From positions 4,698 through 68,697 of the forward strand of contig CAAGHO010000048.1 of assembly GCA_900769695.1 (NCBI GenBank): 64,000 nt of DNA, given 5' to 3'. Of this stretch, positions 47,147-57,877 are shown piece by piece. Both the position numbers and the translations under genes were made by a program. The notes under the pieces are model-generated. The model was given only the letters and a program-made list of their open reading frames with translations, made no database searches and had not been told where the DNA came from. Origin of the DNA: Bacilli bacterium. GTDB taxonomy: Bacteria > Bacillota_I > Bacilli_A > RF39 > UBA660. The first letter of the stretch is position 1, and each line of letters begins with the position of its first letter.

Positions 47147-48051
47147 AAAAGTATATAAAAATTAGTTTCTTATTAGTGATAACATTAGTACTTAGTTTAA
47201 GTAATGTATTTGCTAGTACAAATACAAAAGAAAGGACTGAGTCTGATTATTTAGTTCCTAATAACATAAAAATAACAAATTATAATAAAGACAAAATTCT
47301 TAAAACACCAGCTGTTGATGAAACAGAAAAGGTATATGATTTTGCTGATTTATTTACTGATAAAGAAGAACAAGAATTATATAGTCAAATAACTAAATAT
47401 ATTTCTTCATATAAGATGGATTTAGCTGTTGTTACTATAAATGAAAATAACAAGTATAGAGCACAAGATTATGCTGATGATTTTTATGATTATAATAATT
47501 TTGGTATAAATAAAAGCAGAGATGGAGTTTTATTCTTAATAGATATGGATACACGACAAATTCATATGACAACTAATGGTCAAGCTATAAAGATGTATGA
47601 TGATAAAAGAATTGATGATGCCCTTGATTTAGTGTATCAACATATGACTGATGAGGAATATTATACTGGAACGATTAAGTTTATAAATAGAATAAGTGAA
47701 GATGCTAATTCTGGAGTTCCATCTAGTAACAAAAATATGGTTATTGACAAAGATGGAAATGTTCATATAATAAAAAGAGTTAATTGGTTTTTATTAGTAA
47801 TAATATCTTTGATTGTATCAATTATTACAATAGTTATTTTAGTAGCTAAAAACAAATTAGTAAGGAAGGCAACCACTGCTGAAGAATATTTGGATAAAGA
47901 CAGTGTTAAAATAAATGGACAAGATGTTTTCTTGAGTACTCACACTACTAAACATAAAATAGAGCATAGTAGTAGTGGTGGTTCTGGAGGATCATCAACA
48001 CATAGTGGAAGTAGTGGTATGTCTCATGGTGGCGGAAGTCATGGCTTTTAA
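47143..48051 (+). CDS. TPM-domain membrane protein (YdjH-like) with a Gly/Ser/His-rich tail
   Basis: A signal peptide is followed by VYDFADLFTDKEEQELYSQITKY...DLAVVTI (TPM domain), one TM helix, and the C-terminus SSGGSGGSSTHSGSSGMSHGGGSHGF. Confidence 0.65.
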   Translation: MKKYIKISFLLVITLVLSLSNVFASTNTKERTESDYLVPNNIKITNYNKDKILKTPAVDETEKVYDFADLFTDKEEQELYSQITKYISSYKMDLAVVTINENNKYRAQDYADDFYDYNNFGINKSRDGVLFLIDMDTRQIHMTTNGQAIKMYDDKRIDDALDLVYQHMTDEEYYTGTIKFINRISEDANSGVPSSNKNMVIDKDGNVHIIKRVNWFLLVIISLIVSIITIVILVAKNKLVRKATTAEEYLDKDSVKINGQDVFLSTHTTKHKIEHSSSGGSGGSSTHSGSSGMSHGGGSHGF

Positions 48052-48102
48052 AAAAGCAATAAATAATAGAATTTAATTAATAAAGAAAAGAGGTTAAGAA
48101 AT

Positions 48103-49185
48103 ATGGGATTAATTAAAGCAGCAGTAGGGGCTGTAGGAAGCACTCTACACGATCAATGGAAAGATTATATAAGATGTGAGGACTTAGGACAAGATATTTT
48201 AATGAAGAGAGTATCAACTCCTAATGGTGTTATTTCAAAAGATAGTGCTATTCAAGTTTCTCCAGGACAAATAGCAGTAATATTTCAAAGTGGAAAGATT
48301 TTAGATGCAACAGCAGAAGAAGGAATTTATACATTTGATAGTTCAACTTCACCTTCATTTTTTGCAGGACAATTTGGGGCAGTATTTAAAGAAATGTGGA
48401 ATCGTTTTATTTATAATGGCGCTCCTAGTAAAGAACAAGCAGTATTTTATATAAATGCAAAAGAAATTATGGATAATAAATTTGGTACACCTGCACCAAT
48501 TCCATTTCAAGATTGGTCACATGCAATACCAAATCAAATGACAGGAAAAGAAACTCCAATGGGAGTAAAAGTTAAATGCTTTGGTAAATATACATTTAAA
48601 ATAGCTGATCCTGCTACATTTATGCAACAAGTTGCAGGTACAGCTGAAGAATATAGAAAAGATCAAATCTGTGAACAAATGAGATCAGAAGTAATTGGAA
48701 CATTCCAAAATGTATTAAATGAATTAGGTAATTCAGTACATAAAGTACCAGTATTAGAATTACCAAGTAATACAGATGAAATTAAAAATTTAATGGATGA
48801 AAAAGTATTTGATGAACCAATTAGAAGAAGAGGAATCAGTATCGTTGGATTTATAGTAGAATCTGTAACATTAGATGAAGATTCTGAAAAGAAAATCAAC
48901 AATTACGAATTATCTGCAAATACAGCAATGCAACAAGGTACACTTACTGGAGCTTATGCAAATGCAGTTGTTGATGCAGCAAATAATGCAAATGGTGCTG
49001 CAAATGGTTTCATGGGTGTTGGAATGATGAATATGGCTTCAGGTGGAGTTATGGGTGGAGTAGCAACTAATGCTCAACCAACACAACAAACAACTCAAAC
49101 ACAAGCAGGTGCTAAATTCTGTTCAAATTGTGGTAGTCCAGTATCTGGAGCATTCTGCTCAAACTGTGGAAATAAAATTGCATAA
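48103..49185 (+). CDS. SPFH/band-7-like protein with a C-terminal double zinc-ribbon (YdjI-like)
   Basis: MGLIKAAVGAVGS...ISKDSAIQVSPGQIAVIF is followed by a Gly/Met/Asn-rich linker, then FCSNCGSPVSGAFCSNCGNKI. This is the same architecture as B. subtilis YdjI. Confidence 0.75.
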   Translation: MGLIKAAVGAVGSTLHDQWKDYIRCEDLGQDILMKRVSTPNGVISKDSAIQVSPGQIAVIFQSGKILDATAEEGIYTFDSSTSPSFFAGQFGAVFKEMWNRFIYNGAPSKEQAVFYINAKEIMDNKFGTPAPIPFQDWSHAIPNQMTGKETPMGVKVKCFGKYTFKIADPATFMQQVAGTAEEYRKDQICEQMRSEVIGTFQNVLNELGNSVHKVPVLELPSNTDEIKNLMDEKVFDEPIRRRGISIVGFIVESVTLDEDSEKKINNYELSANTAMQQGTLTGAYANAVVDAANNANGAANGFMGVGMMNMASGGVMGGVATNAQPTQQTTQTQAGAKFCSNCGSPVSGAFCSNCGNKIA

Positions 49186-49210
49186 TTTGAAATAGAAAAG
49201 ATAAAAATTC

Positions 49211-49240
49211 AAAATCAAGCAAAAAATTTTGCTTGATTTT
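49211..49240 (+). terminator. Hairpin after the SPFH gene, first element of the repeated cassette
   Basis: aaaatcaagcaaaa/ttttgcttgatttt is a perfect inverted repeat followed by a T-rich stretch. Its 3' arm contains TTGATT. Confidence 0.6.
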
Positions 49241-49247
49241 TTATTTC

Positions 49248-49257
49248 GGGGGGGGGG
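49248..49257 (+). repeat. Poly-G tract (G10) directly abutting TTATAAT
   Basis: Counted directly: ...tatttc GGGGGGGGGG ttataat... It sits ~40 nt upstream of the ATG at 49297, in DNA that otherwise has no G-runs longer than 5. Confidence 0.9.
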
Positions 49258-49296
49258 TTATAATCATTTTAGATAAGAAAATAGGTGGTATCTAAA

Positions 49297-50271
49297 ATGA
49301 AGAAAATACTAAAATTCATAAAGCATAACGTATTAGGATTCATAATGGGAGCAGTAATATTTGGAAGTTTAGGAGTATATGCGGTAACTATTATAGCAGC
49401 TTCAAATGTGGGATATTCAGATAATAATGATTTAGGAGCAGTTAATGTTCAAGACGCCATAGATAAACTAAATACTAAGGCAACAATAAAAATTAAAGAA
49501 GCAGAGGCAAAGTGTCCATCTGGAAATTTATGTGTATTTGCAAAACCAGGTGATTATGTGAAAATGACACCAACTTCAACCAGTTATACTATAACTAAAG
49601 AATTAACAGGATATAATACTGATGTAATTATTAATCCAAGTGAGTTAAACTTGTGGAGAGTAATAAATGTTAATAGTGATGGAACCCTTGATTTGGTATC
49701 AGTATATTTATCATCGACTATTGTTGCTTTTCAAGGAAAAACCGGATACCAAAATTTTACATATGTTTTAGATCAAATAGCAGCACAATATGCTAATTCA
49801 AAATACACAGTGGCTACAAGAAATATGGGTGATAATGGACAGACAAAAACCATAACTGATACTTCGATATTGAATTCTACAACTTTACCACAATCTTCAT
49901 CAACCTCAAATTTAAATGTTAATAGTACAAATGAAGCAAAAGGATTAGGTGATATAGAGTACCAGAAAGACTATAATCTAGTAAAAAATACACTAGGTAC
50001 ATTAAAAACCAATATAGTTGGTAAAAGAGAAGCTTATTATTGGTTAGCATCTCGTTGTTATATTTATGAATCATCTTCTAATTGGATATTTAGTGGTCTT
50101 AAAATTGATAATTGGGGTAATCTTAGTCCAGCAAATTTATACTATAATAATAATGGTGTTCTTACAGACAGCTTAGATAATGCTGTAATTAGACCAATTG
50201 TAACTTTAAAAGCTAATCTTGTTCCATCAAGTGGTTCTGGTACAAATTCTTCACCATACGTGTTAGACTAA
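49297..50271 (+). CDS. Secreted or membrane-anchored protein with an 'NVQDAIDKL' N-terminal motif and a C-terminal 'YWLASR...IRPIV' + 'GSGTNSSPYVLD' module
   Basis: An AGGTGG RBS precedes the ATG at 49297. It has an N-terminal hydrophobic anchor. Its N-terminal region is paralogous to 58620..59165, and its C-terminal module is shared with the 14273 and 39783 proteins. Confidence 0.6.
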   Translation: MKKILKFIKHNVLGFIMGAVIFGSLGVYAVTIIAASNVGYSDNNDLGAVNVQDAIDKLNTKATIKIKEAEAKCPSGNLCVFAKPGDYVKMTPTSTSYTITKELTGYNTDVIINPSELNLWRVINVNSDGTLDLVSVYLSSTIVAFQGKTGYQNFTYVLDQIAAQYANSKYTVATRNMGDNGQTKTITDTSILNSTTLPQSSSTSNLNVNSTNEAKGLGDIEYQKDYNLVKNTLGTLKTNIVGKREAYYWLASRCYIYESSSNWIFSGLKIDNWGNLSPANLYYNNNGVLTDSLDNAVIRPIVTLKANLVPSSGSGTNSSPYVLD

Positions 50272-50411
50272 TAAAAAATAATATAATGACTTTCGAAATT
50301 TAATCTACATAAAGTAGTAAAATTTATTAATGAAGGTAGAATCTAAAACAAATAAAAACTTGATTTTTGTGCTTTTTCTGATATACTTTAATTTGTAAGG
50401 AGACTAGTATT

Positions 50412-51362
50412 ATGAATGAAGAATTTGATTTAGCAAAGAAAAGAATTAGCGTTTTAAATAATTATGGTGAAAATTTATCAGAAAAGGACTATATTACTAA
50501 TCCAGCTATTGGTAGAGATGAACAAATAAAACAAATGATTTTGATTTTATTAACACCAGATAAATCAGCAATCTTAGTTGGTAAACCAGGTGTTGGTAAA
50601 ACAGCAACAATAGAAGGTCTTGCTTATCGTATTCAGAATGGTACTGTTCCAGATGTCTTAAAAAATTATAATGTTATTAAATTAAATACTTCAGCATTAC
50701 TTGGTGTTGATCCTGTAACTGGAGAATCAAAAGTACAAACTCTACTTGATGAATTAAAAAAACAAACAAAACTAATTCTATTTATAGATGAAATTCATAC
50801 TTTAATGGGCACTAAAGGAGAGGCCTTAGACTTTGCTAATATGTTTAAGCCAGCTCTTGACCGTGGTGATATCAAGGTTGTTGGAGCAACAACAACAGAA
50901 GAATATGAAAGATATATCTTAAGAGATAAAGCCTTTGTAAGACGTTTTCAAAAAGTTGAAATATTTGAACCTACAAGAGAAGAAAATATTGCAATATTGG
51001 TAGGTACTCTTCCTAAAATAGAGAAAAGAACAGGTGTCAAGATAGGATATTCATCTTTTGTTCAGCAACAAATTATGGCTTTTATTACAGATATAACATC
51101 AGAATATAAAAGAATCTATGAAATAGGTTCACGTTATCCAGATGTTTCTTTAACTTTAGTTCAAGAAGCTTTTTCAAATGCATTATTTGATAATAGAAAA
51201 GAAGTTAACATTTTAGATTTTAGAAAAGCAATAGAATCAAGTAAAAACATATATCAAGATGTAATAGATAAAGAACTTCCACATTTTGATGAATTATTCG
51301 CAACTGAAATAAAACAAGTAGAAGAAAAAAATACCCTTGGTTACGAAAGATTAGATGGCTAG
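50412..51362 (+). CDS. Stand-alone AAA+ ATPase resembling the D1 module of ClpA/ClpB/ClpC
   Basis: AIGRDEQIKQMILILLTPDKSAILVGKPGVGKTATIEGLAYRIQNGTVP is present, with Walker B LFIDEIHTLMG, then GDIKVVGATTTEEYERYILRDKAFVRRFQKVEI. It is only 316 aa, with no N-domain and no D2. Confidence 0.75.
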   Translation: MNEEFDLAKKRISVLNNYGENLSEKDYITNPAIGRDEQIKQMILILLTPDKSAILVGKPGVGKTATIEGLAYRIQNGTVPDVLKNYNVIKLNTSALLGVDPVTGESKVQTLLDELKKQTKLILFIDEIHTLMGTKGEALDFANMFKPALDRGDIKVVGATTTEEYERYILRDKAFVRRFQKVEIFEPTREENIAILVGTLPKIEKRTGVKIGYSSFVQQQIMAFITDITSEYKRIYEIGSRYPDVSLTLVQEAFSNALFDNRKEVNILDFRKAIESSKNIYQDVIDKELPHFDELFATEIKQVEEKNTLGYERLDG

Positions 51363-51750
51363 AATGATAAAGAAAATAATTTATATTATCAGTATTATTT
51401 CTTTAGGTGTACTAACAATCTTAACGAGTCAAATGATTCCAATTATTTTTCAAGCTAATTTACAAGGAATATTTTATCTAATAACGGTTATAGGATTACT
51501 TATATTCGAATTAATAGAGTTGATTATATCAAAGAAAATAATTAAAAAAATGTATGGTTATAATATTATGATAATTCTAATATCAATTTATTTAAGTATT
51601 ATATATTGTGTGATTTATAGTAATAATGCCTTAAATAGTATTAAATATTATAAAGATAATTTTTTAATAGTAAGTATTTTAATAATATTAACTATTATAA
51701 GTTATTTTTTTATAAAAAATGATTTTAAATCTCAAAGGGAAAATAGATGA
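51355..51750 (+). CDS. Small 4-TM membrane protein overlapping the AAA+ gene
   Basis: 131 aa. Its start overlaps the AAA+ stop (ATGGCTAG). Confidence 0.45.
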   Translation: MARMIKKIIYIISIISLGVLTILTSQMIPIIFQANLQGIFYLITVIGLLIFELIELIISKKIIKKMYGYNIMIILISIYLSIIYCVIYSNNALNSIKYYKDNFLIVSILIILTIISYFFIKNDFKSQRENR

Positions 51751-51827
51751 AAAATCTATTTTTTTTCCTCTTAGTTTGCTTTTTTTTAAATAATTAGTAT
51801 ATAATATTTAAAAGGAGAGTAGATAAT

Positions 51828-53609
51828 ATGTGTGGAATTGTTGGATACATAGGAAAAAGAAACGCTATAGATATTTTACTTGATGGTTTGAAAAAATTAG
51901 AATATAGAGGATATGACTCTGCAGGAGTTTGTTTATATGATTCTTCTAATATAGAAATAATTAAAAGTGTTGGAAGAATTAAAAATTTAGAAGAAAAACT
52001 AGATTTTTCTAAAGTCAGTAAATACAGTCGAGGTATTGCTCATACAAGATGGGCAACTCATGGAAATGTAACAGAAGAGAATGCTCATCCTCATCAAGTG
52101 GGAAAAATTACTTTAGTACATAATGGTATAATTGAAAATGCTGATATCTTGAAAGATGAATTAATAAAAAAAGGTTATGTTTTTAAATCTAATACTGATA
52201 CTGAAGTAGTTGCAGCCTTACTTGATTATAATTATGAAGAAGACTTTCTAAAGACAATAGATAAATCTATGAAAACTTTAAAGGGAAGTTATGCTTTAGG
52301 AATAATTGTTGAAAAAGATACTAGTAAGATATATGCTGTAAAAAAAGATTCACCACTTGTTCTTGGAACAGGAGAAGGTGAAAATTTCTTTGCTAGTGAT
52401 ATTACTGCTATTAATACTTATACAAATGACTTTATATTTTTAGATGAAGGTGAAGTAGCAGTAGTAACTGATAAAGATATAACAGTTTACAAAGATTTAA
52501 AAAAGGTTGATAAAAAAATAGATACTATTGTAGTTGATTTAGAAAGTAAGAGTAAAAATGGTTATTCCCATTATATGTTAAAAGAAATTAATGAAGAGCC
52601 TGTTGTTCTTGAAAAAACTTTAAAACCATATTTAGATAATTTAGATTTAATACCAGATATAAGTGAGTATGAAGTAATTCATATTGTAGCATGTGGTTCT
52701 GCGATGTATGCTGGTATGGTTGCTAAATATTTACTAGAAGAAAAAGCAAATGTAGAAGTTATGGTTGATGTTGCTAGTGAATACCGTTACAGAAATATAA
52801 ATTATAATCGCAAAACATTAGTTATTTTAATTTCTCAATCAGGAGAAACAGCTGATACTATTGCCGCTATGAGATTTGCTAAAGAAAAAGGTCAAACTAC
52901 ATTAGCAATTGTTAATGTTAAGACTTCAACTATTGCAAGAGAATCAACCAAGGCTTTATTTATAGAAGCAGGAGAAGAAATAGCAGTTGCAACAACTAAA
53001 GCTTATCTATTACAAGTAGCACTTCTATCACTTTTAAGTTTGAAACTTGCTTATGATAAAAAATTAATTGATGATATAACTCCATATCTAGATGAGTTTA
53101 GAGTAATTCCTAAATTAGTAAAGGAAACAATAGATAAAGATAATAATTATAAATCTATCGCAAATGAAATCTATGAAAAAAATAACTCATTCTTCATAGG
53201 AAGAAAGATTGACTATGCATACTGTCTAGAAGGAAGTTTAAAATTAAAAGAAGTTTCTTATATTCACTCTGAGGCATATCAAGCAGGAGAGTTAAAACAT
53301 GGAACAATTTCTTTAATAGATGAAGGTATGCCAGTATTTGGAATCTTAACAGATGAAGATATTATTCCCAAAACTTTATCAAATGTTATTGAAACTAAAG
53401 CTCGTGGTGCAAAAGCAATTATTATTACCTCAAGTTCTGATTTAGGAAAAGACTTTGATTTAGTAATTAATGTTCCTAAACTAAGTATGTTTACTCAAGG
53501 TTTAGTTGTTGTTCCAACATTACAATTAATTGCTTATCATACTGCATCTTTACGTGGATGTGATATTGATAAACCAAAAAATTTAGCAAAATCAGTTACT
53601 GTTGAATAA
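51828..53609 (+). CDS. glmS: Glutamine--fructose-6-phosphate aminotransferase (isomerizing)
   Basis: MCGIVGYIG is the N-terminal nucleophile. Two SIS domains are present, and the protein ends ...KPKNLAKSVTVE. Confidence 0.95.
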   Translation: MCGIVGYIGKRNAIDILLDGLKKLEYRGYDSAGVCLYDSSNIEIIKSVGRIKNLEEKLDFSKVSKYSRGIAHTRWATHGNVTEENAHPHQVGKITLVHNGIIENADILKDELIKKGYVFKSNTDTEVVAALLDYNYEEDFLKTIDKSMKTLKGSYALGIIVEKDTSKIYAVKKDSPLVLGTGEGENFFASDITAINTYTNDFIFLDEGEVAVVTDKDITVYKDLKKVDKKIDTIVVDLESKSKNGYSHYMLKEINEEPVVLEKTLKPYLDNLDLIPDISEYEVIHIVACGSAMYAGMVAKYLLEEKANVEVMVDVASEYRYRNINYNRKTLVILISQSGETADTIAAMRFAKEKGQTTLAIVNVKTSTIARESTKALFIEAGEEIAVATTKAYLLQVALLSLLSLKLAYDKKLIDDITPYLDEFRVIPKLVKETIDKDNNYKSIANEIYEKNNSFFIGRKIDYAYCLEGSLKLKEVSYIHSEAYQAGELKHGTISLIDEGMPVFGILTDEDIIPKTLSNVIETKARGAKAIIITSSSDLGKDFDLVINVPKLSMFTQGLVVVPTLQLIAYHTASLRGCDIDKPKNLAKSVTVE

Positions 53610-53663
53610 AAATGTATAAATCTTATCAATTTTTACCATTATAATAATGGAAGGAGAGATAAG

Positions 53664-54203
53664 ATGAAACTTAAAAAGATACTTGCTATTTGTTTAGGAA
53701 TTTTCATACTTGTTGGTTGTACTAATACTAATAATACTCCAAGTAAAAAAGTAGAAGATTTCTTAAGTAAATATCAAAAACTAGATGATGATGTTTTAAC
53801 CCAACTTGACTTAACACTAGATAATGATCAAGATATGAGTGACGATCAAAAGAAAGATTATCGTGCACTTATGGAAAAACAATATCAAAATTTATCTTAT
53901 AAGATTACAGACGAAAAAGAAGAAGATGACACCGCAACAGTAGAAGCTGAAATAGAAGTTTACGACTATCAAACATCAGTTACAAAATCAACAGAATATT
54001 TCAATTCTCATAAAGATGAATTTGTAACAGATGCTGATAAAGATGGCACTAAAAAGTTTATTGATTATAAGATAAAAGAAATGAAAAATGTATCTGATAA
54101 GACAAAATATACTATGACTTTTAATCTTACAAAGAATAACGGAGAATGGATACTTGATGATATTACAGATACAGATAGACAAAAATTACATGGTTTGTAT
54201 TAA
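53664..54203 (+). CDS. Lipoprotein, unknown function
   Basis: The signal peptide has the lipobox ILVGC/TNT. Length is 179 aa and the protein is acidic. Confidence 0.6.
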   Translation: MKLKKILAICLGIFILVGCTNTNNTPSKKVEDFLSKYQKLDDDVLTQLDLTLDNDQDMSDDQKKDYRALMEKQYQNLSYKITDEKEEDDTATVEAEIEVYDYQTSVTKSTEYFNSHKDEFVTDADKDGTKKFIDYKIKEMKNVSDKTKYTMTFNLTKNNGEWILDDITDTDRQKLHGLY

Positions 54204-54241
54204 GACTAGAAATAGTCTTTTTTTCTTGATATAATTTATTT

Positions 54242-54931
54242 ATGAAAAAATATAGTTTAAATAATCAAATAGAAAAAGTTTTAATGGGTAAAGCTACTAA
54301 CTTTTTAAATCCAATAGATACTAGATATGTAATTAATAGATTAAAAGGTATGGATTTTACATATAAAATATTTTATCTATATAAAGAATCAGAAAAGTTA
54401 ATTGTGTATAATGATGATGTTGATATAACACTATTTGAGATAGAATCTAAGATATTATTAACACATAGTCAAATACTTGGTAGTTTATTTTCTCATAATT
54501 TAGATGAAGCTATGTTTGGAGATATTGTTATTATAAATGATAAGTATTATATAGCTATTGTTAACAAAATAAAGAACTATTTTATTAATAATTTTAACAT
54601 GGTAGGTAAAAATAAAATAAAGTTACATGAAGTTAGTCTAGATCAAGTAAAAGACTTTATTCCTAAATATAAAGAACTTAAGATATCTATATCATCACTA
54701 AGAATAGATAATGTCATCTCTAAAGTTATACCAACTAGTAGAACTATTAGTAAAGAATTAATAGATAATGATAAAGTTTTCATAAATTATGAAGTTTTAA
54801 GTAATAAGAATTATTCTTTAAAGGAAAATGATATATTTTCTATACGTGGTGTTGGTAAATTCAAATTAATAAGTATTGGACCTCTAGTAAAGAATAATAA
54901 GTATCAAATAGTTATAAAAAAATACATTTAA
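54242..54931 (+). CDS. RNA-binding S4-domain protein (YlmH-like)
   Basis: The C-terminal LRIDNVISKVIPTSRTISKELIDNDKVFINYEV...ENDIFSIRGVGKF is an S4 domain pattern. Confidence 0.55.
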   Translation: MKKYSLNNQIEKVLMGKATNFLNPIDTRYVINRLKGMDFTYKIFYLYKESEKLIVYNDDVDITLFEIESKILLTHSQILGSLFSHNLDEAMFGDIVIINDKYYIAIVNKIKNYFINNFNMVGKNKIKLHEVSLDQVKDFIPKYKELKISISSLRIDNVISKVIPTSRTISKELIDNDKVFINYEVLSNKNYSLKENDIFSIRGVGKFKLISIGPLVKNNKYQIVIKKYI

Positions 54932-54977
54932 TATTATAAAATTACAATCTTTGACATATATTTTTTTAGGTGATATT

Positions 54978-56009
54978 TTGAAAAAATATATGTTTTTTTT
55001 ATTATTAATTCTATTTCTTTTTCCATTAAATGTTTTTGCAGTTACTGATACAGCAACATCATCGATTGTAATGGATATGGATAGTGGAAGAATTTTATAT
55101 AGTAAGAATAAAGATGAAAAAAGACTAATTGCCTCAATTACAAAAATAATGACTTCAGTTATTGCTTTAGAAAAAGGAAAATTAAATGATGAATATCAAG
55201 CTGGTGAAGAAATTTTAGAAATGTATGGTACTAGTATTTATTTGGAATATAAAGAAAAAATGAAACTAGAAGATTTATTATATGGATTAATGTTAAGAAG
55301 TGGCAATGATGCTGCAGTTGTTATTGCTAATAATATTAGTAAAAATGAAGAAACATTTGTAAAATTAATGAATGCTAAGGCTAAAAAATTAGGAATGAGT
55401 AATACTTCTTTTAGTAATTGTCATGGTCTTGATGAGAAAACCAAAAACTATTCAACTGCCTATGACATGGCTAAACTTTCAAGTTATGCTTATACTAATT
55501 TTAAAGAATATCGTAAAATCGTAGGTACTAAAAAGTATAATGTTCAAACAAAAAATAAAAGCTATTTATGGTATAACAGGAATAAACTTTTATCATCTTA
55601 TGAATACTGCACAGGAGGAAAAAATGGATATACACCAAGTGCTGGTAGAACACTTGTAACAACAGCAAAGAAAAATAATCTTAATTTAACAGTAGTTACT
55701 TTAAATGATGGAGCAGAATACGTTACCCATAAAAATTTATATGAATATGCCTTTAGTAACTATAAAAGATATAAAGTAGTAGATAAAAATAATTTTAGTA
55801 TTAGTAAATCATTTTTTAAAGACGATTTGTATATAAAAAAATCATTTTATTATCCTTTAAAAGAAGATGAAGTTGATAAAATCACAACAAAAGTTAAGAT
55901 AAATAAGAAAAAAAGATATAAAAATAATGAAGAAGTAGGAAATATAGATATTTATTTAGACAAAGAAAAAATTGCTTCAATTCCAATTTACGTAAAAATA
56001 AAAAAGTAG
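54978..56009 (+). CDS. D-alanyl-D-alanine carboxypeptidase (serine-type, PBP5/DacA-like)
   Basis: An AGGTGA RBS precedes the TTG at 54978, giving the signal peptide MKKYMFFLLLILFLFPLNVFA. Motifs are SxxK (ASITKIMT), SxN (RSGNDAA) and a KxG-like GGKNGYT. Confidence 0.8.
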   Translation: MKKYMFFLLLILFLFPLNVFAVTDTATSSIVMDMDSGRILYSKNKDEKRLIASITKIMTSVIALEKGKLNDEYQAGEEILEMYGTSIYLEYKEKMKLEDLLYGLMLRSGNDAAVVIANNISKNEETFVKLMNAKAKKLGMSNTSFSNCHGLDEKTKNYSTAYDMAKLSSYAYTNFKEYRKIVGTKKYNVQTKNKSYLWYNRNKLLSSYEYCTGGKNGYTPSAGRTLVTTAKKNNLNLTVVTLNDGAEYVTHKNLYEYAFSNYKRYKVVDKNNFSISKSFFKDDLYIKKSFYYPLKEDEVDKITTKVKINKKKRYKNNEEVGNIDIYLDKEKIASIPIYVKIKK

Positions 56010-56022
56010 GAATCTACTTTTT
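56001..56022. terminator. Bidirectional hairpin shared by convergent genes
   Basis: The stem is aaaaagtag/ctacttttt with loop gaat, spanning both stop codons. Confidence 0.5.
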
Positions 56023-56937
56023 ATTTGTTAAACGATAAAAATTAATACTTGGATTATTAAATATTCTAAATCCTATAGTTTTAGATACCAATCCTCCAGA
56101 AATATAAATATCAGTACTATTTTTCTTATAATATGGATTAATATATTTACTAGAACCTTCCTGCTTAATAATTCCTCCAATACCAGGTATTACTATTTCT
56201 CCATTTAATGAATTTCCAGCAAGAACTAAATCAGGATTATAATTAGTAATAATTTCATCTAAATCTTCAGTCTCACTCATTATAGAAATTGTATAAATAT
56301 TAGAATTGTGTGTTTCTTCATTGAAATATTTAAAAGCTTCTTCTATATTTCTTTCATTATTTACATAGCTAGAAAGCCCTACTAATAGAATAGGAGTATT
56401 ATTGTTGTATATTAGATCATAAGAATTATCTAAGATAATAAAATCACTTTGATTCATAATCGTTGTAAAAATATCCTTATTATCATCTTTACCATATACA
56501 GCATATTTACTAGTAGAGGCATTAATTTTTTTTAAAGAATTAATTATTTTTTCTTTTTCTTTAATACTTAATTCATAATTTTTATTAATTAAATTACCAG
56601 TAAAAATTACAATATCAGGCTTTCTTTTATTAATCACTTTTACTAAATTATCTAATTCTTCTTGAGAAATATTATTGCCATAATCAATATCTGTAAAGTG
56701 AATAATTTTATTTCCATTAAATGAATCAGGTATTTTTTGATTAGTAATTCTTACTTCTTTTACAATTAATCCTAGAGTAGTAGCGTATTTAGCATAAAAG
56801 TATAATGAGAAAAAGAAGATTATAATTATAATTGTTATCTTGAAGAGTAATTTTACTATTTTTTTTCTTTTTTCACGAGACTTTTCTTCTTCTATTTCAT
56901 TTTGAATATCTTTATTTTTTTCTTGTCTTGTTACCAT
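56014..56937 (-). CDS. Membrane-anchored calcineurin-like metallophosphoesterase (YkuE-like)
   Basis: A GGTGA RBS precedes the ATG at 56937. An N-terminal TM helix is followed by IIHFTDIDYG, DIVIFTGNL and LVLAGNSLNGE. Confidence 0.65.
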   Translation of the reverse strand: MVTRQEKNKDIQNEIEEEKSREKRKKIVKLLFKITIIIIIFFFSLYFYAKYATTLGLIVKEVRITNQKIPDSFNGNKIIHFTDIDYGNNISQEELDNLVKVINKRKPDIVIFTGNLINKNYELSIKEKEKIINSLKKINASTSKYAVYGKDDNKDIFTTIMNQSDFIILDNSYDLIYNNNTPILLVGLSSYVNNERNIEEAFKYFNEETHNSNIYTISIMSETEDLDEIITNYNPDLVLAGNSLNGEIVIPGIGGIIKQEGSSKYINPYYKKNSTDIYISGGLVSKTIGFRIFNNPSINFYRLTNKK

Positions 56938-57040
56938 AATATTCACCAATTATATTGTAACATAATATATAAAAAAATATTTTAAAAATTACAAAAAAAT
57001 GATATCATTAGTGTATAAGAAAAATAAGGAAGTGAAATTT

Positions 57041-57694
57041 ATGGCTACTAACAAGGGTAAAGAAAAAAAATCTACAACTAAAAAAGTAAGTAATAGCTCT
57101 ATAAAAAGAAAGAAAAATGTAAAGAAAAAGATAGATATGGAAAAGTACAATAACGATATATTTATGTTTTCAATATTGTTATCTGTCGTTTGTATTTTAG
57201 CAGTATCATTAAAATCTTATCAATTTATACTATTTGGTAATCACTTACCATTTTCATTATTGATAGTACCATTTACTATCTTTATAAGTAATTATATTAC
57301 AAAAAAATATGGTTTTAAAAATTCATTATTTTCAATAGGAGTTTCGACATTAGTAATTGTTGCTTTCATTTTATTGATAGATAATTTAACTAACAGGCAA
57401 GCAAGTATTACAGAAATAAGTGGTTTTGTAGTTACATATTTTGGAAGTATGTTTATTAACTTGTTGATTTATTATTACATAATACTTAATATGACTTCTA
57501 AAAGTATTATGATAGGACTAAACTATTTATTTACACTAGTTCTTAATTCTTTTCTATATTTATTATTCTTTCATGAATTAGTTCTATCAAGTTCATTATG
57601 GATGGAATTAACAATTTCATTTATAATTCAATTTATTATTTCTATAGGATTAATTTACTGTGATAGAAAAATAGAAAGAGGAGTAAATATTTAA
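57041..57694 (+). CDS. Polytopic membrane protein, possibly VUT/YhhQ-type (queuosine-precursor transporter family)
   Basis: An AAGGAAGTGA RBS precedes the ATG at 57041. A basic N-terminus is followed by ~6 TM helices with ...LLIVPFTIFISNYITKKYGFKNS... The family call is tentative. Confidence 0.4.
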   Translation: MATNKGKEKKSTTKKVSNSSIKRKKNVKKKIDMEKYNNDIFMFSILLSVVCILAVSLKSYQFILFGNHLPFSLLIVPFTIFISNYITKKYGFKNSLFSIGVSTLVIVAFILLIDNLTNRQASITEISGFVVTYFGSMFINLLIYYYIILNMTSKSIMIGLNYLFTLVLNSFLYLLFFHELVLSSSLWMELTISFIIQFIISIGLIYCDRKIERGVNI

Positions 57695-57720
57695 AATAAT
57701 TTATAAAAAACAAATAAATG

Positions 57721-57760
57721 ATATGACCTCATTTCTCGAATATAAGAAATGGGGTCATAT
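57721..57760 (+). other. 16-bp hairpin (one G-U pair), no T-tract on the + strand
   Basis: atatgacctcatttct - cgaatata - agaaatggggtcatat. It lies 27 nt after the stop at 57694. Confidence 0.5.
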
Positions 57761-57792
57761 TAGTGTTAGAAGATGAAAATGTTAGTAATATG

Positions 57793-57877
57793 ATAGTATT
57801 AATGATTCAGATATAAATGTAAGTAGAAATATTATGTTTAAAATACATTACTAAAATTAAGAGAATAAGATATAATA
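57793..57877 (+). repeat. Intergenic repeat, copy B (matches 45855..45948)
   Basis: The sequence is atagtattaatgattcagatataaatgtaagtagaaatattatgttt...aaaattaagagaataagatataata. Confidence 0.6.

Follow-up and report, generated by a model that had tools for sequence, protein, structure and literature searches.

The promoter preceding the gene for a 324-aa protein in a 64-kb stretch of DNA (the window, by which the whole of the stretch analysed is meant) is probably a slipped-strand phase-variable promoter, of which the sequence would show a weak or off state. A run of ten G is situated between its −35 and −10 hexamers, the same arrangement recurs as a cassette ahead of paralogous genes, and the length of the run differs between assemblies of the same species.

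The promoter cassette and its second copy in the window

From 5′ to 3′, the cassette consists of a terminator hairpin, the −35 hexamer TTGATT, nine AT-rich nucleotides, a tract of G9–10, a single T, the −10 hexamer TATAAT, a short leader and a ribosome-binding site (Table 1). The original prediction had located the G10 run and the two hexamers, as well as the 20-nt spacer, and all these positions proved exact when checked again; it had also placed TTGATT inside the 3′ arm of the upstream terminator, and the hexamer does fall within the 3′ arm of a hairpin with 13 pairs and a subsequent T run, which is found past the stop codon of an SPFH/zinc-ribbon gene (48103–49185) and which, as RNA, has a folding energy of −14.7 kcal/mol (z = −5.0). 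TTGATT agrees with the −35 consensus at four of its six positions, and a G at −14 provides a partial extended −10 in this first module.

The GC content of the window is 26.5% over 64 kb, and not the approximately 28% first given. If bases were independent, about 0.004 G runs of nine or more would be expected in this length, and two are observed; under a first-order model the expectation for 64 kb goes from 0.001 (runs of at least ten G) to 0.04 (at least eight). These two, a G10 and a G9, are the only G or C runs of six or more in the window, where there are no G runs between G5 and G9 and no C runs of five or more. Given this excess, and since both runs occupy homologous promoter positions, chance is excluded, in agreement with the prior claim that a G10 would be improbable in such DNA.

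The tract at 49248 was thus correctly recognized at the outset, but the G9 tract and the multi-copy nature of the element were missed. The second module presents the same order, with a hairpin (AATCAAGCAAGAAATTTTGCTTGATT), nine nucleotides with TTGATT before them, G9, TTATAAT, a ribosome-binding site and the ATG, and the existence of this homologue shows the G10 locus to be no isolated oddity but one of a set of repeated promoter cassettes. The 181-aa protein encoded behind it has in common with the 324-aa protein an N-terminal motif, GYSDN..LGA.NVQ.AID, and the two genes contain a DNA repeat, D2, with 80% identity over 66 nt. Both tracts end 39 nt 5′ of the ATG, upstream of the −10 and hence outside the ORF, for which reason an intragenic translational switch of the Campylobacter type was rejected for the tracts of the window. 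An invertible promoter (inverton) was also rejected, because the only repeats are those of the terminator and of the leader hairpin, neither of which brackets the promoter, and because there is no neighbouring recombinase gene.

A shortened reverse-transcriptase ORF, every NCBIfam match of which lies under its cut-off, overlaps the second paralogue at its 3′ end. This ORF may be the remnant of a decayed diversity-generating retroelement (DGR); a DGR target locus within the window was rejected, as no template/variable repeat pair is found in 48000–64000 and the reverse transcriptase is incomplete. The metagenome contig L078 departs from the window sequence from about 59207 on. On the 3′ side of the reverse-transcriptase fragment, positions 59880–63766 contain three ORFs: one of 661 aa with no Pfam or NCBIfam match, one of 133 aa with no Pfam match, and one for a 497-aa protein with a DUF2201_N domain (putative metallopeptidase) and a VWA-like DUF2201 domain.

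As regards orientation, all the G tracts of the window are G on the + strand. Its first 46 kb carry 38 ORFs of at least 120 aa, all but two on the + strand, the long ORFs of the remainder are mostly + too, and on this strand G exceeds C by 51% (10,192 versus 6,747). Such a bias of the ORFs, together with the excess of G, fits a leading-strand segment with a strong GC skew.

Table 1. Features of the two promoter modules, their genes and the L213 repeats (window positions unless L213 is indicated)
Feature	Position	Strand	Basis or remark
Terminator-like hairpin, module 1; 3′ arm holds the −35	49211–49240	+	13-pair stem, then T run
−35 hexamer TTGATT, module 1	49233–49238	+	Sequence; kept across module copies
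−35/−10 spacer, 20 nt, containing G10	49239–49258	+	
G10 homopolymer in the promoter spacer	49248–49257	+	Direct read-out of sequence
−10 hexamer TATAAT, module 1	49259–49264	+	Sequence; TTATAAT invariant in 11/11 copies
Inverted repeat in the 5′ leader	arms 49264–49275 and 49289–49300	+	12/12 complementary
Transcription start, predicted	~49271	+	Putative
Ribosome-binding site AGGTGG	49283–49288	+	8 nt ahead of ATG 49297
Gene for 324-aa signal-/membrane-anchored protein	49297–50271	+	Uncharacterised family
Second module, whole	58532–58619	+	Homologous to module 1
Second-module hairpin	58537–58562	+	−35 TTGATT inside, at 58557–58562
Second-module G9 tract	58572–58580	+	Spacer 58563–58581 = 19 nt
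Second-module −10 TATAAT	58582–58587	+	
Gene for paralogous 181-aa signal-anchored protein	58620–59165	+	Repeat shared with the first gene
Shortened reverse-transcriptase ORF	59125–59850	+	Pfam RVT_1, E = 2e-16, profile positions 61–204 only
Variable repeat (C-terminal part of gene)	L213: 2265–2411		
Template repeat	L213: 3336–3482		

Module copies, tract length and leader

Eleven copies of the module were compared: the two of the window, another from its species (L209/L210), with G9 and ahead of the gene for a 63%-identical paralogue, and eight in a related MAG, CAKOXP01, from an uncultured Bacilli of the Hadza gut. The latter came from a GTDB search with a pattern running from the −10 to the ribosome-binding site, in which the G tract was not demanded, and all eight were in this one MAG; the tract is G9 in six of them, G10 in another and interrupted (GGTGGTGG) in the last, and the genes on their 3′ side encode homologues of 179–269 aa. 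The blocks CTTGATTTTT, TTATAAT, TTA.ATA and TAGGTG are invariant in the 11 copies, and the G run is also a conserved block, interrupted in a single copy and consisting of G9 in eight. The spacer accordingly measures 19 nt in eight copies, 20 nt in two, and 18 nt in the interrupted, or locked, one. Some copies (L220, L224) have lost the left arm of the hairpin and retain the −35 and the G tract; as CTTGATTTTT is kept in 11/11 copies even where this arm is missing, the −35 is conserved in its own right. The reading of the tract as part of a promoter spacer, already present in the original prediction, is borne out by its position between this universally kept −35 and a perfect −10. In 59 kb of CAKOXP01 and the loci examined from the window's species, G or C runs of seven or more are found in the modules only.

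When a pattern made up of the hairpin arm and TTATAAT was compared with genome contigs, it yielded five chance matches in unrelated taxa, and with metagenome contigs ten loci, two of them genuine (L078 and L081). The whole window has no match in Rfam at gathering thresholds, which indicates that the element does not correspond to any known riboswitch or RNA.

A conserved sequence containing GGGAAGTTAAATAAATAATTTACC is located directly 5′ of the modules in L115, L220, L226 and L210, with related sequence in L086/L087 and L212; it looks like the end of an insertion sequence that prefers a site adjacent to the cassette. In L086, the SPFH gene and the module are separated by an inserted gene for a 396-aa HTH_38 protein, which may be a transposase.

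With respect to length, the original prediction had called for the tract to be compared across isolates and metagenomes, and variation is what this comparison reveals. At the first locus, nine independent assemblies of the same species (93–100% protein identity) have G9 in seven cases and G10 in two, a range of one nucleotide that is drawn, like all the length data, from short-read metagenome consensus, in which a one-base change in a homopolymer of ten could be an error of sequencing or assembly. The flanks can be identical over 7 kb: the single difference between L006 and the window in 6,975 aligned nucleotides is one G in the tract, and L010, which matches the window, has G10. At the second locus, three assemblies (L011 and L078 among them) have G9. 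The G7 and G8 alleles that are predicted to be the on-lengths occur in none of the assemblies at the loci of the window, which contain G9 and G10 only. As a control, an interrupted GGTGGGG in the orthologous promoter of a relative is identical in seven assemblies; in another orthologue one strain has G9 and the other GGGGGTGG, with an identical protein. A hypermutable tract subject to occasional decay should look like this. The contig of the NCBI MAG GCA_902463045.1 begins within the tract of the first locus, and such contig breaks are only suggestive as a sign of length heterogeneity within populations.

The leader contains an inverted repeat of its own, arranged in such a way that the start codon falls within its 3′ arm and the AGGTGG within its loop. 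The corresponding hairpin (−10.3 kcal/mol) is found in most module copies, and 90% of its pairing cells are kept across seven distinct copies, against 35–49% in slid controls; the covariation among these seven, with one compensatory pair, falls short of significance and, being weak, leaves the fold-back step as something that we infer. Because the left arm begins at the last base of the −10, transcripts from the cassette promoter would miss most of it. Transcripts reading through from upstream would fold shut with the start codon in the stem, and it may be in this way that the hairpin blocks their translation. In the fold-back inhibition of IS10, the region of the start codon is paired, through an inverted repeat, with sequence 5′ of the element's own start, with the consequence that translation is possible only for transcripts of the internal promoter. 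The leader repeat of the window has the same geometry, although in this case the transcription start is a predicted one and the inhibition is presumed.

The protein family and the wider distribution of G-tract promoters

The 324-aa protein has an N-terminus that is basic and then hydrophobic, as is typical of signal peptides and membrane anchors, and it looks surface-exposed; the window proteins have no lipobox. A total of 590 homologues come from MAGs of uncultured gut Bacilli, Tenericutes or Firmicutes, and neither of the two putative surface proteins of the window (324 and 181 aa) matches Pfam or NCBIfam. An AlphaFold2 model of the longer one has a mean pLDDT of 81 and is confident for residues 80–324; a Foldseek comparison of this model with the PDB gave nothing with E < 0.1, and none of the PDB sequences matched in a profile search with the protein.

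In L213, the gene for a 59%-identical homologue has a 147-nt repeat pair (Table 1) whose mismatches are mostly adenine-specific, and on its 3′ side come a MutS_I-domain gene, one with a weak bAvd match (27 bits, the Pfam cut-off being 40) and the template repeat. As the template differs from the variable repeat mainly at adenines, this homologue is a DGR target.

Only two of 63 GTDB homologues have a G run of six or more within 160 nt upstream of the called start, so that the promoter tract is restricted to a lineage and not general to the family. When the whole loci of the same 63 were scanned, runs of G7–G11 appeared in 11, mostly intragenic. Among distant homologues, G10 abuts the −10 in L012 (G10 and TATACT) and L035 (TTGACA, 9 nt, G10, TATGAT). 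In other lineages (L037, L043, L049, L050, L054, L055, L064 and L067, all of them MAGs in GTDB, from the guts of rabbits, mice and others), tracts of G8–G11 are located inside the gene, about 45 nt past the ATG, where the signal peptide or membrane anchor is encoded. Of ten such tracts, nine are out of frame (mostly G10, for which G9 would restore the frame) and one, a G9, is in frame, and several contigs begin a few bases 5′ of them. These intragenic tracts correspond to the classical translational form of phase variation, and their occurrence in and out of frame in homologous genes lends further backing to the phase-variable reading with which the analysis began. In all cases the tracts of the family are G on the coding strand.

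Beyond this family, a pattern as simple as a run of at least G9 beside TATAAT is sufficient to find more than 100 similar promoters in public genomes, with at least 122 tracts in the GTDB scan. Among the matches listed, 69 of 122 have a strong −35 (TTG-type, at least five of six positions) 13–30 nt upstream, compared with seven of 107 control positions. The distances to the −35 among these listed matches are nearly all 15–21 nt, with 19 the commonest, a shift towards long spacers that is partly built in, since the pattern demanded at least G9. Most of the callable downstream genes among them encode N-termini resembling signal peptides, and their hosts include many uncultured Bacilli MAGs (with several copies each), Clostridia and Saccharibacteria, as well as Treponema, Streptobacillus notomytis, Streptococcus suis and Blautia schinkii. 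A recurrent architecture in L089–L208 is TTGACA, 7–9 nt, G10 or longer and TATAAT, 5′ of genes for signal-peptide proteins.

The proposed switch, competing readings and known systems

According to the mechanism proposed here, the spacer of a promoter of sigma-70/SigA type would hold, in the G tract, a simple-sequence repeat that is hypermutable, and slipped-strand mispairing at replication would lead to the gain or loss of one G. The tract would set the spacing (17 nt with G7, 18 with G8, 19 with G9 and 20 with G10), and as its length alters the distance between the −35 and the −10, transcription would be dialled between high and near-off. The switching would be heritable yet reversible, random, and separate at each copy. 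G7 and G8 are predicted to be strong and the sequenced states, G9 and G10 (19–20 nt), to be weak or off, with the surface protein being made by a minority of cells carrying G7 or G8. The upstream terminator would shield the gene from upstream transcription and, with the possible leader hairpin, would make expression rest on the cassette promoter alone. If each cassette switches independently, as proposed, the outcome would be a combinatorial display of a variable family of surface proteins. The dependence of expression on length, the rate of switching, the exposure at the surface and the start of transcription are inferred.

The spacing can be set against the norm of the lineage. In 382 kb of low-GC Bacilli loci, taking −35/−10 matches at 11 or more of 12 positions, only the 17-nt spacing of ordinary strong promoters rises above shuffled controls (27 versus 14) and the 19-nt spacing is depleted (1 versus 10). 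The G-tract promoters, with spacers of 19–20 nt, are therefore 2–3 nt past this norm, and the initial estimate that 20 nt is about 3 nt above a 17-nt optimum agrees with the promoters of the lineage.

The main rival is a static promoter element, in which the tract would be a fixed, rigid, A-form-like G·C spacer with its optimum at 19 nt, the differences between G9 and G10 would be neutral or noise, and there would be no switching. This we regard as unlikely, even though the length is uniform (G9 in eight of the 11 copies and in seven of the nine assemblies), G7 and G8 alleles are absent from the assemblies, the clustering at 19 nt could represent a functional optimum, and the G at −14, as a partial extended −10, could lower the sensitivity to spacing. 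Against it, paralogous and orthologous promoters keep their architecture with interrupted runs (GGTGGTGG, GGTGGGG, GGGGGTGG) and spacers of 18–19 nt, which means that the identity of the G is itself dispensable; a 19-nt optimum runs counter to the preference of the lineage for 17 nt and its depletion of 19; the intragenic tracts of the same family mostly disrupt the frame; and one G is the sole difference over 7 kb between two assemblies. The uniformity, for its part, can be accounted for by a mutational bias towards G9/G10 (PMC3401435), and the clustering at these lengths matches both this bias of C. jejuni and the tprL tract of T. pallidum (PMC3401435, PMC7864442).

Less probable still is that the site is governed by a DNA-binding regulator, acting on the palindrome of the −35 (AATCAAGCAA...TTGCTTGATT) or on the inverted repeat at the start site, with the G tract either incidental or tuning the geometry. 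A perfect palindrome of 10–12 nt does overlap the −35, a 12-nt inverted repeat extends from the predicted start to the ATG, and the sequence of the stem is similar between species; however, the left arm of the palindrome is missing in L220 and L224 while the −35 and the G tract stay, and this dispensability makes control by a regulator unlikely as the whole story. In L209, moreover, an A-to-G change in the left arm keeps the RNA pairing (as G·U) and breaks the DNA symmetry, which favours a terminator, and in the window the modules have no linked regulator gene. As for the tract being an artefact of sequencing or assembly (poly-G of two-colour Illumina chemistry, or a chimeric join), which would have in its favour that contigs L008, L012, L043, L049 and L067 begin in or just 5′ of G tracts, it is scarcely credible: the tract lies inside contigs of at least nine independent samples, obtained with several assemblers and always between the same −35 and −10, it is found again at each of 11 homologous modules, and in the intragenic class it is in register with the ORFs. 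This recurrence across samples and assemblers effectively refutes the artefact.

If we accept the slipped-strand promoter as the best explanation, the locus offers a concrete and testable example in an uncultured commensal lineage of the human gut, with several near-identical cassettes per genome. Were reads to confirm it, these organisms would hedge the display of their surface against phage or IgA, the tract would serve as a metagenomic marker for phase states at the population level, and the breaks of MAG contigs at such tracts would be explained in part, although contigs broken by repeats of paralogous sequence would have the same appearance. A broader proposition, which we advance tentatively as conceivable and somewhat short of probable, is that uncultured gut Bacilli of low GC possess a poly-G "phasome" of several loci: a dispersed cassette (terminator, −35, G9–10, −10 and fold-back leader), with from at least three to eight copies per genome, that would independently gate a family of surface proteins also hypermutated by DGR in at least one relative, thus giving two stacked layers of variation, and that G-tract promoter spacers before genes for secreted proteins are widespread, and largely unrecognised, in gut MAGs across phyla. 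Multi-repeat simple-sequence phase variation has been documented almost entirely in pathogens, an apparent restriction that a 2025 review counts among the open questions and that may reflect a bias of the databases (PMC11868660). A literature search found no description of such a switch for this lineage, for its cassette or for the link with a DGR-targeted family, just as the original prediction was aware of none in this type of AT-rich Gram-positive, and lineage, cassette and link alike appear to be undescribed.

The putative mechanism is nevertheless of a known kind, closest to tp0126/tpr of T. pallidum, porA of N. meningitidis and vlp of M. hyorhinis; the likeness to homopolymer switches of pathogens that was first suggested is thus upheld as to kind, but it left out the closest precedent, the poly-G promoters of T. 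pallidum. In the vlp system of M. hyorhinis, which belongs to the related low-GC group of Bacilli/Mollicutes, each of the surface genes has a highly conserved 5′ region with poly-A between the −35 and the −10, and their independent on/off switching generates a combinatorial variation of the surface. The resemblance lies in a gene family each of whose members has its own conserved homopolymer promoter, and the difference in that the vlp tracts are poly-A and precede lipoproteins with internal size-variable repeats, whereas here they are poly-G, there is no lipobox, and the variability of DGR type is found in relatives.

In T. pallidum, tp0126 has poly-G between the −35 and the −10, with an optimum of 17 nt, and tprL has mostly G9 in vivo, G8 being active and G10 near background (PMC7864442). 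The likeness to tp0126, tprE/G/J and tprL extends to coding-strand poly-G of about 8–11 in sigma-70-type promoters, to putative surface proteins, and to the presence of several poly-G loci per genome; in contrast, T. pallidum is a spirochaete pathogen with unrelated gene families, while here the hosts are low-GC gut Bacilli and what is involved is a near-identical dispersed cassette known from sequence comparison. According to the summary in the same source, a homopolymer that lies between the −35 and −10 of porA (poly-G) and opc (poly-C) of N. meningitidis, or overlaps them, gives graded expression (high, medium or none) and, as in the cassette, sets the spacing ahead of a gene for an outer-surface protein (PMC7864442); unlike the window, where the evidence is comparative and the resting state longer than the optimum, those are single loci of a Gram-negative pathogen, proven experimentally. 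Finally, the poly-G tracts of C. jejuni are on the coding strand and cluster at G9/G10, with a bias to insertion at G8–9 and to deletion at G10–11 (PMC3401435). An AT-rich genome, G/C runs confined to contingency loci and a modal length of G9/G10 are common to both cases (PMC3401435), and distant homologues of the gene in the window use the same intragenic, frame-shifting form; yet most of the tracts of C. jejuni are inside ORFs, whereas the two of the window are in promoters, and the phylum and the target genes are different.
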